Origin: a phage
DNA length: 64,000 nucleotides
Sequence record: PZ386974.1
Direction: 5' to 3' (one strand)
In this document: in pieces, positions 37,007 through 50,443 of the stretch
Position numbering within the stretch: position 1 is the first letter of the stretch
How the letters are laid out: the number at the start of each line of letters is the position of its first letter
Notes under the pieces: generated by a model
The model's input: only the letters and a program-made list of their open reading frames with translations
Told to the model about the DNA's origin: nothing
Databases searched by the model: none
Program-made: the position numbers and the translations under genes

Positions 37007-37542
37007 TGCATTCCAATCACAAAAAATTGAGGACGAGCAATACCACCGATGCAATATTTGCTTTTGCAACAGTGTTGGACTGTTTTAATATGGATGTCGT
37101 AAATCTTATCCATATCAGGAGCTTTAATAGGCTCGTCAATTATGTACAGAATACGAGAAAGCGTTAATCCACGGAATTTATGTCCTTCATTACCAATAAA
37201 ACTACGGACAGAATCAGTAAATAAACGGAATCGAATATCATCGCTAGAATATCGAGAAAATTCTTTTTCAATGTTGCCGGCAGAAATTTTAGCGTAAGCT
37301 GAAGTATTAGAAAGAACAATAACTGTTCCGCCATCATACAACCAATTAGCAGCAAAATTAGTCACAGCAATTGATTTACCGGATTGTCTGCCGCCGTCTA
37401 AACGAAGTGTACAGTACTGCTTGAGTACGTCTTCAAATGGTGGGGCATAACCGTTCTTACAAATTTCTTCTACTCTAGCATCAGAATGGTGTGTAAAAGC
37501 ATTCATCAGGGATAGATAAGGTCCGGTTAAAAATGTTCTCAT
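37003..37542 (-). CDS. P-loop-containing protein (179 aa)
   Basis: GGRQSGKS Walker-A-like motif. Confidence 0.5.
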   Translation of the reverse strand: MRTFLTGPYLSLMNAFTHHSDARVEEICKNGYAPPFEDVLKQYCTLRLDGGRQSGKSIAVTNFAANWLYDGGTVIVLSNTSAYAKISAGNIEKEFSRYSSDDIRFRLFTDSVRSFIGNEGHKFRGLTLSRILYIIDEPIKAPDMDKIYDIHIKTVQHCCKSKYCIGGIARPQFFVIGMQ

Positions 37543-37715
37543 TTAGTTTCTCTTAAGGTTGGGGCCGTTCCGTGGCACATGTTAGGTCCTTCGACTCGCT
37601 ATGTAAACCCATTACCGCACTTGGGCTCGACCTTATTACAGGTTGGAAAAGGTACATCACTCAGAGGACTCGACGTTCATGAGGAGAGGTTGCGTTTCCC
37701 TTTATTAGGCAAGAA

Positions 37716-38045
37716 TTATACTCTAGGCTTTTGAGCTTGTTTGGTATTGGATTCCCATGCAGCTTTGGTAATTTTGTTAGCGGCATAACCAAAGGCATTA
37801 GATAGAACACCTTTAGAGTTGAATACATCCAATCCAATAAGTACACCGGCTGTGTTAAATTTAGGAGCAAAGTACGCATTAGTTTTAGAAAGAGCTTTTT
37901 TCAATTCAGGGTCTTGAACCAAACCATCAAAAACGCCTTTACTATTTACTTTATATGTTACTTTGGGATTTTTACCTTCTTCGATAGCAGCTTTCTGTTC
38001 CGCAGATAATGTAACTTCAGTGATAAACTCTTGATACGTTTTCAT
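37716..38045 (-). CDS. internal protein (IP) candidate with capsid-targeting sequence
   Basis: N-terminus MKTYQEFITE matches the T4 IP capsid-targeting consensus MKTYQEFIAE. Confidence 0.65.
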   Translation of the reverse strand: MKTYQEFITEVTLSAEQKAAIEEGKNPKVTYKVNSKGVFDGLVQDPELKKALSKTNAYFAPKFNTAGVLIGLDVFNSKGVLSNAFGYAANKITKAAWESNTKQAQKPRV

Positions 38046-38070
38046 TTTGTTCCTATTGTTTTAATTTATG

Positions 38071-38385
38071 TTATTCTTTAGGGAAGTTTTTAGAGTATGC
38101 ATCATAAAGTTTATTACCGATGCGACGGAAGACTTTAGCTGCAAAACGGTTTTCAGGGTTTTTAATCATGATTTGCATCATGTAAGTTCCTGCATCCGAA
38201 AGAGCTTCTTCATAGTACCCATTAATTTCTTTAAGGGTCCTACGTTTACCACCAGGACCATCAACAGTAATTTTCCATTTACCTGTAGAAGTGCGGCTCG
38301 GTGGCTCAACTTGTTCAATCCAAATATAACCACCTTCAACGCGTTGGTTGGCGGATTCTGCAATAAATTCTTTATACGTTTTCAT
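38071..38385 (-). CDS. internal protein (IP) candidate with capsid-targeting sequence
   Basis: N-terminus MKTYKEFIAE. Confidence 0.65.
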   Translation of the reverse strand: MKTYKEFIAESANQRVEGGYIWIEQVEPPSRTSTGKWKITVDGPGGKRRTLKEINGYYEEALSDAGTYMMQIMIKNPENRFAAKVFRRIGNKLYDAYSKNFPKE

Positions 38386-38449
38386 TTTTTGTTTCCTTGT
38401 TTGTTTTGATAGAGTAATTATACCATATTAATACTTAAGCGTAAACAAT

Positions 38450-38710
38450 TTAAGCTTTACCGCCAGAAATAATTCCGAAGTTGTTAAAATCGTATCCAAT
38501 ATCGTCAACATCTACTTTAGGGCTTGCTACAACATAAGCAATTTCACTACGTTTTGCATAGGTGTTGATTTCTTTACCATCGCCACCTAAGAAAGAATAC
38601 CCATTACGCTTTAATGAGCCAAAGTCTTCCGCATCACCAATGAAAGCTTTAACTTTAAATTTAGGACCTTTGGCATCTGCTTCAATGATAAATTCTTGAT
38701 ACATTTTCAT
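38450..38710 (-). CDS. internal protein (IP) candidate with capsid-targeting sequence
   Basis: N-terminus MKMYQEFIIE. Confidence 0.65.
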   Translation of the reverse strand: MKMYQEFIIEADAKGPKFKVKAFIGDAEDFGSLKRNGYSFLGGDGKEINTYAKRSEIAYVVASPKVDVDDIGYDFNNFGIISGGKA

Positions 38711-38716
38711 TTTTCC

Positions 38717-39130
38717 TTAGTAAATTGATTTACCATAGTATTTGTACCAAGTCGGACGTTGAGCAATTTTTTCATCTAAGCGTGCTTGACTTATCGCAAT
38801 GGACGCTTCGGACGGGACGTAATTATTACGAAATTCGGCAGGGATGTCGGAAATATCCTGGACAGTCGTGTCCTTGATTTTGAAACCACGTTTCAAGCAT
38901 TCAGCGATTAGCTCGATTTGTCGTAAACGTAAAAATTCGAGTTTGTCGTAAAAGAATGTTACGTGACCTGTGCCTAAGATAAATGTTGGAGAGATTTTAA
39001 AATCCTTTACACGTTTACCGTTTTGAACATGTTTACGGACTGCACCAAATACGCGTGGTAATTCACGATACTCAGCCATAAGATGTTGGTCGGCCAGTTC
39101 AGAAACAAGCGTTAAATTGATACGGGTCAT
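38717..39130 (-). CDS. denV: endonuclease V (pyrimidine-dimer DNA glycosylase) DenV
   Basis: [34 protein letters not shown] matches T4 DenV; start set at MTRINL with GGAGG SD. Confidence 0.9.
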
Positions 39131-39135
39131 AATTT

Positions 39136-39187
39136 CCTCCAAGTAGTTGATGAATGTATAGTATCAAAGTCCTTGGAGGAAGTAAAC
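39136..39187 (-). promoter_or_regulatory. early-type promoter (GTTTAC-N18-TACTAT) within inverted repeat CCTCCAAG/CTTGGAGG that contains the denV Shine-Dalgarno
   Basis: 8-bp perfect arms; -10 lies in the loop; the 3' arm is the SD. Confidence 0.5.
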
Positions 39188-39188
39188 A

Positions 39189-39485
39189 CTATTTTTCTGA
39201 AGCGCCTGAAATATATTTTTCAAGACGTTGTTTCATTAGCGAGCCGTTCTTAGCGATTTCTTCTGGTTTATCGCACATACGCAACAGTGCTTCAAGCTTA
39301 ACGATATCACTGGTGCGCTCAAATTTGCGAGTATCTATCTTACTAGCAAGTTCAGAAATACGTGCTAATAGACTTTCAGCTTCAACCAAAGCTGCACCTA
39401 GCTTAGTTGCAAATGTGTCGGTAGCTTCGTTAAGAATAGATTCTGATAAAAATTCACTATATGTTTTCATATATACGCTTTCCAA
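39189..39485 (-). CDS. internal protein (IP) candidate with capsid-targeting sequence
   Basis: N-terminus [10 protein letters not shown]. Confidence 0.65.
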
Positions 39486-39955
39486 GTTCCTGTTTTAAAT
39501 GTTGAGATTACGCGTTTCGCGCGATTAGGTGTCTGACGATACCATTTAGATTGGGCTAGATTTACTGCCGCTTCGTCCCAACGTTTCTGTTGAAGCATAC
39601 GAAGAGAATTAGTAAAACCGGCGACGCCTGCTACACCCATTTGGAAGACCATATTGACCAACGCACATCGACGAACCGCATCTAAAGAATCATACACCGG
39701 TTTAAGTTTAGCATTACCCAAGATTCCGCGAACGGCTTTATCAACGTCTTCATTAAATAGCTTTTCAGCCTCATCAAGGGTAATTGTACCGTTGCATTTA
39801 CGACCGATCATTCTGTCAAGTTCAGCTTTAGCTACGGCTAAAGACGGGTTCTTTGTTACTAAATGGCCTATGCCAATCGTCCAAAAGCCTTCAGTGTCTT
39901 TGTATAAAGTCAGTCTAAGACCTTCGTCATTACGAAGCATTTCAAATATATTCAT
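39467..39955 (-). CDS. e: endolysin (T4 lysozyme, gene e)
   Basis: [32 protein letters not shown]...[15 protein letters not shown] matches T4 lysozyme; start at MNIFEML (39955). Confidence 0.92.
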
Positions 39956-47168: not shown

Positions 47169-47195
47169 AAAAAGCCCCAACCGTAAGGAAGGGGC
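47169..47195 (-). terminator. intrinsic terminator downstream of the IP-like gene
   Basis: AAAAAGCCCCAACCGTAAGGAAGGGGC on plus strand, i.e. hairpin then U-run on minus. Confidence 0.55.
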
Positions 47196-47201
47196 ATTCT
47201 A

Positions 47202-47666
47202 TTATTTAATTTGTTTAGCAGACCAGATACGGTCTTTAATAAGTTTTTGGATATCTTCAACATACTCAAGGCTATGAGCGTGAGGATTATCTTTGAAGCT
47301 ATGTGCTCGTGCCAGTTTCTGGCCTTCTGTTTTGATTACTAAAAGCTCTTTAAGAATTGCTTCATACTTAGAAATAATTCCTTTGGCGATATTTTTTTCT
47401 TGAGCGGCTTTAGGGTCCGCTTTTGGTGCAGGTGCTTTACCTGTAGCTTTCTGGAACAATTCACCTGATGCAGCTAGGCTTTTAAAAACTCGGCTAACAG
47501 TATTAGCATTAGTAAAACCTTCGGCTTTAAAATCTCTAATAAAACGGAAACGTTCTTCATCAGAGGCGTCTTTGTAAGAATATTTACCTGCTTGAATTGC
47601 TGCAATCGCAGCGGCTTTTACATCTGAACTAGATTGTTCAGTCAAAAATTCAGCGTATGATTTCAT
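47202..47666 (-). CDS. internal protein (IP) candidate with capsid-targeting sequence (154 aa)
   Basis: N-terminus MKSYAEFLTE. Confidence 0.6.
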   Translation of the reverse strand: MKSYAEFLTEQSSSDVKAAAIAAIQAGKYSYKDASDEERFRFIRDFKAEGFTNANTVSRVFKSLAASGELFQKATGKAPAPKADPKAAQEKNIAKGIISKYEAILKELLVIKTEGQKLARAHSFKDNPHAHSLEYVEDIQKLIKDRIWSAKQIK

Positions 47667-47710: not shown

Positions 47711-47740
47711 AAAAAAAAGCCCCAACCTTTCGGAAGGGGC
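47711..47740 (-). terminator. intrinsic terminator at the end of the tRNA/small-RNA transcription unit
   Basis: A8 followed by GCCCCAACCTTTCGGAAGGGGC on plus strand. Confidence 0.6.
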
Positions 47741-48052
47741 TATGCCTTGCGGCAACCTTGTCGGGGTTCCACCTGCTAAGGCAAGTGTTTGTACGAAACG
47801 CCGGGATTCGAACCCGGTTATTAAGTAGTTGACGCTACTCAATATTTTTAAAAGGCCATATCTCGACCATATCCGAACGTTCCGTCAAAAACGCTACTCG
47901 GCTTACGGCAAAGATATTTCCTCGAATCGATAATTCGGTGCGCCGTTTCTGCTGTGATGTAAGGGGATATTAACAAATCGTAAAGATTTATTAAGACCAG
48001 TCCTTACTCAGGGAGCATCAGTCCGACGACTTACCGGTAGCGACCCGGCTTC
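47741..48052 (-). ncRNA. structured non-coding region with a tRNA-like T-arm (candidate small stable RNA or degenerate tRNA)
   Basis: No ORF; minus-strand CCGGG-TTCGAAT-CCCGG at 47801..47817, 10-bp palindrome GGAACGTTCC, repeated GAGTAGCGT; no complete cloverleaf could be folded by eye. Confidence 0.3.
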
Positions 48053-48397
48053 TTATTTTGACATATCATCAATTTGCTCTCGACGCCGACGCCATAGATT
48101 AATCACTTCATTAACACATTCGGCGTTTGATATATGACGGCAATAATATAATGATTCGCGTTTCTGGAACCGATGTTGCAATGGGATTTCGTTTAAAAGG
48201 TCTTTACGGTCAAAGTATTCAAAACTAGTTAACCCAGAACGGTTTTTAATGAACTTCCAATGACCGAATTCATTTTGAACATAGATGTAATCTGCATGTT
48301 GGTATAACAAATTAATCAATCGGTCTGAAATAACTGTATCATGTTCGTTAAAATAAAACGTTAAATCATGAACTACCAGATAAATATTGCCTTTCAT
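48053..48397 (-). CDS. hypothetical protein (114 aa)
   Basis: Start set at ATG 48397 (GAGGAA SD) to avoid overlap with tRNA-Arg. Confidence 0.5.
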   Translation of the reverse strand: MKGNIYLVVHDLTFYFNEHDTVISDRLINLLYQHADYIYVQNEFGHWKFIKNRSGLTSFEYFDRKDLLNEIPLQHRFQKRESLYYCRHISNAECVNEVINLWRRRREQIDDMSK

Positions 48398-48415: not shown

Positions 48416-48492
48416 TGGTCGAGACAGAAGGATTCTAACCTTCAACCTACGGATTAGAAGTCCGTTGCTCGATACAATTGAGCTATGCCTCG
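48416..48492 (-). tRNA. tRNA-Arg (anticodon UCU), CCA encoded
   Basis: Manually folded cloverleaf: 7-bp acceptor stem (one G-U), D-stem GCTC/GAGC, anticodon stem ACGGA/TCCGT with loop CTTCTAA, T-stem GAAGG/CCTTC, discriminator A + CCA. Confidence 0.8.
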
Positions 48493-48498
48493 AATATA

Positions 48499-48572
48499 TG
48501 ACCCAGACCAGATTCGAACTGGTAACCTTTCCCTTATGAGGGGACTGCTGCTAACCATTGAGCTACAGGGCC
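48499..48572 (-). tRNA. tRNA with CAU anticodon (Met or lysidine-type Ile)
   Basis: T-arm ACCAG-TTCGAAT-CTGGT, anticodon loop CTCATAA with U33/A37, acceptor stem with one mismatch; CCA not encoded. Confidence 0.6.
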
Positions 48573-50029: not shown

Positions 50030-50035
50030 TTGTTT

Positions 50036-50075
50036 TGATAGGACTACTATAACATAGTCCTATCAGCATGTAAAC
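50036..50075 (-). promoter_or_regulatory. early-type promoter GTTTAC-N18-TATAGT with perfect inverted repeat ATAGGACTA/TAGTCCTAT flanking -10
   Basis: Hexamers, spacing and 9-bp arms read directly. Confidence 0.5.
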
Positions 50076-50078
50076 TAC

Positions 50079-50366
50079 TTATAGAAGAGTTTTTGCAATA
50101 ATTTTAAGCTGAGCTACAGAAATATGCTTAGCTTTAAACAGTGCAGTCTCTTCAGCCGGAGAGATAACAATAGTAGCGCCATCTTTCTTAGCAGACCATC
50201 CATCCCCTAAATAAACAGTACCTTTTACTTCTTCGCCGTCAACCAGACTAATCATTGGTTTACCCTCGCGTCCTTTATTTGCTTTAATAACTTCGGAAGT
50301 AAGGGTTGCTTCGGTCAGAGTAGAAACGTTAGCAACAGGTGATATAAATTCTTTATAGGTTTTCAT
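50079..50366 (-). CDS. internal protein (ipI-like by position) with capsid-targeting-like N-terminus
   Basis: N-terminus MKTYKEFISP; located upstream of 57B as ipI is in T4. Confidence 0.6.
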   Translation of the reverse strand: MKTYKEFISPVANVSTLTEATLTSEVIKANKGREGKPMISLVDGEEVKGTVYLGDGWSAKKDGATIVISPAEETALFKAKHISVAQLKIIAKTLL

Positions 50367-50399
50367 TTTATTTCCTTGAGGTTGTTTATTTGATAGGAT

Positions 50400-50429
50400 G
50401 ATAGTAACACACCATCATCCTTATGTAAA
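50400..50429 (-). promoter_or_regulatory. early-type promoter GTTTAC-N18-TACTAT with inverted repeat AGGATGAT/ATCATCCT
   Basis: Upstream of the ipI-like gene. Confidence 0.45.
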
Positions 50430-50443
50430 CTGTTTTGTGAAAA

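Follow-up and report, generated by a model that had tools for sequence, protein, structure and literature searches.

How should a group of small phage genes be read when their products begin with almost the same ten residues and then continue into bodies that do not resemble each other? This question is raised by the 64,000-nucleotide stretch of DNA in record PZ386974.1 (called the window here, at its full length), in which a first-pass annotation had pointed to six open reading frames (ORFs), four of them clustered around denV, that open with the leader known from the internal proteins (IPs) of phage T4. The window is, judging by its sequence, that of an RB69-like Mosigvirus, and we consider it quite likely that the six genes encode internal proteins of this T-even phage, which would be packaged, processed and injected to counter host defence. 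The family has been known since 1994 and its layout is that of RB69; the observation is correct and its interpretation is the accepted one. The working names used in this text are IPa to IPd for the four genes around denV, IPe for the gene beside rnaC and IPf for the gene between the 57B side and trna.4.

All six ORFs sharing the leader are indeed present on the minus strand, and their reported coordinates hold save for the start of the fourth. IPa (37716-38045, minus strand; 109 aa, leader MKTYQEFITE/V, where the slash stands for the predicted cut) corresponds to RB69ORF123c, IPb (38071-38385, minus; 104 aa, MKTYKEFIAE/S) to Ip10 and RB69ORF124c, IPc (38450-38710, minus; 86 aa, MKMYQEFIIE/A) to RB69ORF125c and IPd (39189-39470, minus; 93 aa, a ten-residue leader and then /SILNE/A) to RB69ORF127c. 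IPe (47202-47666, minus; 154 aa, MKSYAEFLTE/Q) belongs to the RB32ORF133c / wV7 gp137 family, and IPf (50079-50366, minus; 95 aa) carries the leader MKTYKEFISPVANVSTLTE/A, with a predicted mature form of residues 20-95. In the case of IPd, the frame 39189-39485 had been listed from a TTG at 39485 (MESVYMKTY...) and, while the ORF stands, that start does not: the leader begins at an ATG at 39470, the start chosen in the annotations of RB69 and APCEc01, and this ATG shares nucleotides with the stop of the lysozyme gene e (ATGA). Similarly, the description of the leaders as variants of MKTYQEFIxE fits five of the proteins but not the sixth, IPf, which reads MKTYKEFISP, lacks Glu10 and has its cleavage motif (LTE) at residues 17-19.

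When the window is translated in all six frames, the pattern MK.Y.EF[ILV] occurs at six places and no more, each of them the opening of one of these ORFs, whereas 300 first-order Markov simulations of 64 kb gave a mean of 0.007 matches and a maximum of 1. When candidate starts were scored with a position matrix of known leaders, the six starts reached 31-37 bits, while the runner-up among 1402 candidates stayed at 4.9 bits. As this matrix contains the six leaders themselves, the independent check is the alignment to the N-terminus of T4 IpII/IpIII, and each leader aligns with it individually, at 55-82% identity over 9-21 residues. Additionally, an AGGAA-type Shine-Dalgarno sequence lies upstream of all six genes, and each body is kept as an intact ORF in 91-511 phage genomes (counts per body drawn from 50,697 phage records). 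At the DNA level, the leader appears as a 34-nt direct repeat in four copies that are 65-91% identical.

The positions conserved in the leader are those to which function has been assigned in T4. According to the mutagenesis of T4 IPIII (Mullaney and Black 1996, as reviewed in PMC9026906), targeting depends mainly on residues 4 and 7 and processing on residues 8 and 10, and the first ten residues of IPIII suffice for packaging foreign proteins (PMC9026906, PMC3012670). In the window, Y4, F7 and I/L8 are found in six of six proteins and E10 in five, IPf being the exception. The motif of the gp21 protease, I/L-x-E, ends at residue 10 in IPa-IPe, and IPd has a further one that ends at residue 15; in IPf it ends at residue 19, so an alignment of the N-termini, which had been proposed as a way to find the cleavage site, places it at residue 10 in five proteins but not in IPf, where it falls at residue 19. 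The identification of the shared N-terminus with the T4 capsid-targeting sequence is thus supported by residues 4, 7, 8 and 10, by the alignment to the T4 proteins and by the classical loci that five of the six genes occupy.

Leader-bearing genes also lie around denV in other genera, with four in Dhakavirus WG01, two in Karamvirus CC31 and two in Gaprivervirus UPEC01, and the leader is retained there although the bodies have diverged down to 32-50% identity. For instance, the CC31 homologue of IPb begins with MKTYNEFITE and the UPEC01 homologue of IPc with MKTYQEFITE. As the leader is kept at the mapped residues in divergent genera, selection would act on it at the amino-acid level and not merely on a DNA repeat. 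By analogy with the T4 proteins, we regard the packaging and processing of these proteins as quite probable.

Some leaders have an additional segment. In IPd, a second motif (SILNE/A, residues 11-15, 39426-39440) follows the first cleavage motif; the Tequatrovirus homologues of IPe (wV7 gp137) read AVLNE/A after the leader, and IPe in the window is devoid of those five residues. Leaders seem, from such comparisons, to have been exchanged among different bodies and to be able to bear a second cleavage site.

One of the six can be given a name from its whole sequence. IPf is, by homology, the orthologue of T4 internal protein I (IpI): it is 88% identical to IpI, matches the Pfam family PF11634 (IPI_T4) with an E value of 1.3e-50 and 169.7 bits against a cut-off of 25 (residues 20-95 covering model positions 1-76), and aligns through the same residues 20-95 with PDB 2JUB (IPI*) at an E value of 5.8e-42. 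IPf has no Glu at position 10, and the leader of T4 IpI likewise lacks E10, T4 IpI too being processed after residue 19. As residues 20-95 correspond to the solved mature IPI*, the cut is expected after LTE19 and not after residue 10. In T4, IpI inhibits the GmrSD enzyme of strain CT596. Inhibition of GmrSD has been reported for T4 IPI, and the IPI of RB69 was reported to prevent GmrSD restriction and thus to protect (PMC6024577, PMC12373910); IPf would, from what is known of these orthologues, be an inhibitor of GmrSD type IV enzymes as well.

For the remaining five, the bodies give less guidance. The earlier statement that the bodies are unrelated to each other agrees with pairwise BLAST and phmmer, neither of which finds similarity between the leaderless bodies (E > 0.03). 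Full-length matches to phrog_3966 are found for IPa as well as for IPb, and a hidden homology between the two through this cluster was considered and rejected: it had no support from BLAST or phmmer, and hhalign of leaderless two-sequence family alignments gave it a probability of 0.25%. Judging from these sequences, phrog_3966 is probably a mixed, heterogeneous cluster. When IPa-IPe are compared with T4 IpII/IpIII, the alignments are limited to the first 9-21 residues and the bodies are dissimilar, and no match to IPa-IPe was found in Pfam, NCBIfam or the PDB sequences.

Relatives of the four genes around denV are nevertheless easily found among phages. The body of IPa is 100% identical to that of RB69ORF123c and is present in 91 phage records, and a large protein search recovered two clusters only, which are near-identical; in Dhakavirus WG01, a homologue with 32% identity occupies the same slot and has retained the leader. 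In every GenBank, RefSeq or UniProt record examined, IPa is labelled "hypothetical protein". IPb has homologues in 190 phage records, those of the Enterobacter phages CC31 and PG7 being about 50% identical to it, and it clusters at 90% identity with Ip10 of phage Pol (CAA84455) and with its RB69 counterpart. Ip10 is reportedly among the genes named by Repoila and colleagues in 1994 (EMBO J 13:4181). IPc, which starts 6 nt past the stop of denV, belongs to phrog_2667 ("internal head protein"), with RefSeq relatives annotated likewise and 218 records, and IPd belongs to phrog_3499, with the same description, the same RefSeq annotation and 497 records. IPd also shares a 90% cluster with its RB69 counterpart and is 47% identical to the "ipV" genes that lie in the ipI locus of Tequatrovirus phages. 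Public labels near these genes are unreliable, as examples from UPEC01, ESCO10 and Killian illustrate: the UPEC01 gene in the vs.8 slot is called "IpIII internal head protein", and the names "RNA polymerase ADP-ribosylase" and "MazF family toxin-antitoxin system protein" have been given to an IPa-like and an IPd-like gene, respectively.

The genomic setting is that of the T-even IP loci. The region of the denV cluster is 98% identical over its full length to many Mosigvirus phages, 74 records covering at least 80% of the cluster, and the second region, on the side of IPe and IPf, shows the same pattern; the isolates closest to the window in DNA sequence, with 96-98% identity, are Mosigvirus phages other than RB69. 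RB69 has the same order as the window (e, ORF127c, denV, ORF125c, ORF124c, ORF123c, vs.8; AY303349, deposited in 2003), while T4 has e, ipIII, ipII, denV, vs.8 and, farther along, 57B, ipI, trna.4. Five of the six genes therefore lie inside the two IP loci (e/denV/vs.8 and 57B/trna.4), IPe being outside. Within the first locus, the slots are filled differently: T4 has two IP genes between e and denV and none between denV and vs.8, against one and three in the window and in RB69, two and two in WG01, and one and one in CC31. Additionally, UPEC01 carries its Ip10-like and IPc-like genes in reversed order, a close Mosigvirus relative has an additional Ip7 adjoining Ip1, and the nearest Tequatrovirus relatives of IPd occupy the ipI locus.

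The likeness to T4 extends to the leader residues, the two neighbourhoods, the design of promoter and stem-loop, the small size and the unrelated bodies. The differences are that T4 has three IP genes against six in the window, that three of the six lie downstream of denV where T4 has none, that orthologues of IpII/IpIII are absent from the window and that IPe, beside rnaC, is outside both T4 loci. Consequently, the description of an "expanded" family applies relative to T4 only, since RB69 and about 75 other records carry the same set, and the "dispersed" layout proves to consist of the two classical IP loci of T-even phages and a single additional site, that of IPe. An IPe-family gene appears to be absent from RB69 itself, judging from annotation notes of the close relative Shf125875, in which that ORF is referred to another phage. 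Unrelated bodies joined to a common leader, in variable slots on the denV, 57B and rnaC sides, are best explained, on present comparisons, by cassette shuffling. Repoila and co-workers are said to have described in 1994 polymorphic genes, Ip4-Ip12, found by detecting the leader. These polymorphic Ip4-Ip12 genes of T-even phages represent the same phenomenon, IPb being Ip10 and IPd having 47% identity to ipV. More than 30 IP variants have been counted in T-even phages (Comeau et al. 2007, as cited in PMC2839356).

IPe lies between rnaC and the genes on the e.8 side, and its homologue in Tequatrovirus wV7 holds the same position. Homologues of its body occur in 511 phage records and are "hypothetical" in every record examined; a large protein search gave ten clusters, none of them informatively named. 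An AlphaFold2 model built with eight homologous sequences is all-helical (mean predicted local distance difference test score, pLDDT, 75; predicted template modelling score, pTM, 0.46) and suggests that residues 13-71, the conserved part, form an N-terminal helical domain, which a linker rich in Pro, Ala and Lys joins to a helical hairpin at the C-terminus. The search of this model against the PDB with Foldseek returned only generic helical-bundle (ferritin) matches (E at least 0.6, template modelling score at most 0.32), and no fold was assigned. The IPe homologue of Klebsiella phage RCIP0032 keeps a leader (MKFKEFLAE) and the N-terminal helical domain, and its C-terminal half is unrelated, which suggests domain swapping inside the IPe family.

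The gene is bracketed by two G+C-rich, terminator-like hairpins, one just downstream of it (47169-47195, minus strand) and one between rnaC and IPe (47714-47740, minus strand), which are the copies of a 27-nt direct repeat and are 89% identical; such a repeat could permit the excision or insertion of IPe as a cassette. Directly upstream of IPe are homologues of rnaC (47792-47930, minus strand; 99% identical to T4) and rnaD (47937-48056, minus strand; 87%), a region in which the Rfam scan of the window found no match.

Expression signals in the two loci also follow those of T4. Upstream of IPb there is a T4-early-type promoter cassette (38395-38446, minus strand) made of GTTTAC, a 17-nt spacing and TG-n-TATAAT, followed by TATCAAAACAAACAAGGAAA; its promoter has 10 of 12 consensus matches, together with the TG. 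Upstream of IPf, an early promoter with a stem-loop (50384-50430, minus strand) comprises GTTTAC, a hairpin and TATCAAATAAACAA, and a second copy (50031-50075, minus strand) lies just downstream of IPf and upstream of trna.4, so that the gene is bracketed by two similar cassettes. The promoters of IPb and IPf both have the stem-loop and a conserved TATCAAAACAA spacer, a design shared with the regions upstream of T4 ipI, ipII and ipIII, and more promoter/stem-loop copies are found downstream of IPf and of IPe. IPa, IPc and IPd have no promoter of their own, IPa starting 25 nt after IPb. As the recognisable promoters are of the early type, one has to suppose that these proteins are supplied during head assembly, an assumption made for the T4 ip genes too. 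The PeSL cassettes, by which modules are shuffled in T4-type genomes (Arbiol et al. 2010, PMC2839356), likewise consist of a repeated early promoter, stem-loop and spacer flanking variable small genes; such elements were noted at the IP loci in the same work, as analogues and not homologues of the PeSLs of RB49/phi1.

If these proteins behave as those of T4, their route can be outlined. A capsid-targeting sequence of roughly ten residues, which can be read in each sequence, opens the protein; during prohead assembly, this leader would bind the gp22 scaffolding core, as in T4 IPIII, and the protein would thereby be enclosed. The gp21 protease would then cut after the Glu of its I/L-x-E motif, at residue 10 in five of the proteins (with a further cut likely at residue 15 of IPd) and after residue 19 in the case of IpI, the motif being visible and the cleavage expected from it, and the mature protein would be freed among the packaged DNA. 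Mature proteins would be ejected together with the DNA and act before phage genes are expressed, and each would most likely block one host defence protein, the prime candidates being GmrSD-family type IV enzymes, whose substrates include the sugar-modified cytosines of such phages, as is established for IpI and assumed by extension for the other five. Shuffling would take place by recombination at the leader, Shine-Dalgarno, early-promoter/stem-loop and terminator sequences, probably driven by an arms race with diversifying restriction enzymes.

The proposal of the first-pass annotation that these are candidate injected anti-defence effectors is consistent, by analogy, with the published view of the family (PMC3012670, PMC12373910). 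In this view, internal proteins are diverse defence proteins in which only the capsid-targeting sequence is conserved (Rao and Black 2010, PMC3012670). Each of Ip1, Ip2 and Ip3 was found by Silas et al. (2025, PMC12373910) to inhibit a GmrSD type IV enzyme of its own, without cross-protection, the targets of IpII and IpIII being GmrSD-ECOR21 and GmrSD-ECOR17, respectively, and the same was predicted for the remaining genes of the IP loci. IPIII is needed on ECOR17 and is active without its leader (PMC9391042). The DNA of Mosigvirus phages carries arabinosylated cytosine and not glucosyl-hydroxymethylcytosine (PMC6024577, PMC13326640, PMC13390438), and enzymes of the GmrSD family, BrxU among them, cleave it (PMC13390438), which leaves the type IV enzymes as the likeliest targets. 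By analogy with the T4 proteins, the chances that most of IPa-IPe have a counter-defence role seem to us somewhat better than even.

Several explanations compete with this one. That the motif recurs by chance, or that the ORFs are not genes, would be suggested by their small size and by nothing else. Six matches where 0.007 are expected, a Shine-Dalgarno sequence before every gene, intact frames in 91-511 phage genomes and a solved structure for one member all oppose it; a chance origin of the recurrence is excluded, and we give this explanation practically no weight. Another is that the shared 5′ end is mainly a linker for DNA recombination and that the proteins are early effectors in the cytoplasm, not meaningfully packaged. 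This would fit a leader that is also a 34-nt DNA repeat, the early-type promoters before IPb and IPf, the lack of perfect late promoters and the activity of IPIII when it is expressed in the host without its leader (PMC9391042). However, amino acids are conserved exactly at the mapped targeting and processing positions, while the DNA copies are only 65-91% identical, the leader persists across distant genera and in the Klebsiella phage variant, in T4 this leader is enough to bring foreign proteins into the head (PMC3012670, PMC9026906), and an early-promoter design of the same kind does not keep the products of the T4 ip genes from being abundant in virions. We therefore judge a mere linker to be very improbable. 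The proteins might instead be packaged and serve a structural purpose, such as neutralising the charge of DNA, assembling the head or packaging and ejecting the DNA, in place of countering defence. The basic character of mature IPa, IPb and IPe (isoelectric point, pI, 9.6-9.7) would agree with this, as would the roughly 1000 IP molecules within the DNA of the T4 head, with lysines touching the DNA phosphates (PMC3012670), and the IPIII mutant that builds heads at about half the normal rate (PMC9026906). By contrast, IPc and IPd are near neutral, the genes are patchily distributed among close relatives (91-511 records per body, with different slots in T4, RB69, WG01 and CC31), which fits accessory, host-specific functions, and the T4 internal proteins are all dispensable on laboratory hosts, each with a specific GmrSD target (PMC12373910). 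A purely structural role is thus unlikely, if less so than that of a linker.

Some observations also weigh against reading the six genes as packaged proteins that counter defence. None of IPa-IPe is like Ip2/Ip3 beyond the leader, so that a GmrSD target is proposed for them by analogy alone, and IPc and IPd, with a pI of about 6.3-6.4, differ from the classical basic internal proteins. For IPa-IPe, neither proteomics of virions nor N-terminal sequencing nor genetics was found in the literature consulted. By T4 synteny, gp21 and gp22 would be encoded beyond the 64 kb window; their genes are core genes of T4-related phages (PMC9026906). No perfect T4 late promoter (TATAAATA) is found near any IP gene, the six matches in the window being at chance level and only variants with one mismatch occurring near these genes; this absence is discounted because the T4 ip genes share the early design and their products are nevertheless abundant in heads. 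IP genes have been said to be confined to two loci (PMC2839356), to which IPe is a mild exception. In the literature on the ORF names of RB69 and RB32 and on Ip7/Ip10, nothing further was found, and Petrov et al. (2010) make no mention of internal proteins.

The surroundings of these genes include a few further elements. The gene for endonuclease V, denV (38717-39130, minus strand), is not an IP gene and constitutes a conserved landmark within the cluster. The antisense ORFs 38068-38409 and 39154-39498 (both plus strand) were rejected as mirror ORFs: transcription of the whole region runs leftward in T4, and the annotations of relatives list no such ORFs. At the other end of the cluster, the stretch from the stop of IPa to the ATG of vs.8 at 37542 (37543-37715, minus strand) is G+C-rich and corresponds to what is annotated in T4 as the first 40 or so codons of vs.8, which are frameshifted in the window; it is probably non-coding here. 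About 40 nt of it (AACCTGTAATAAGGTCGAGCCCAAGTGCGGTAATGGG) form an almost invariant core common to T4, WG01, CC31 and UPEC01, and in the flanking stems pairing is preserved in the alignment through two-sided changes. Folded as a single sequence, the stretch shows no unusual stability (z +2.2), and Rfam has no family that matches it. The proposal that it is a new RNA gene of the IP cluster was dismissed because the region is conserved and is treated in the annotation of T4 as the 5′ end of vs.8; it may be an undescribed RNA or DNA element. Finally, only two tRNA genes (Arg-tct and Met-cat; 48416-48572, minus strand) are found in the window, and T4 has eight at the corresponding site.

For the biology of these phages, what remains of interest are the defence targets of IPa-IPe, the two members that carry no IP annotation and the one outside the classical loci. 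The families of RB69ORF123c and RB32ORF133c, now labelled "hypothetical protein", could be re-annotated. A bolder and rather tentative idea, which we hold to be less probable than its opposite, is that IPe points to a third hotspot, beside rnaC, for the insertion of genes for injected proteins, contrary to the published confinement to two loci, and that IPa-IPe each neutralise a different defence, some of them not of the GmrSD type. As the cytosine of Mosigvirus is arabinosylated, its internal proteins would be good candidate inhibitors of defences that recognise this modification and, if the idea of a third hotspot and diverse targets were true, they would provide five ready probes for new modification-dependent defences.

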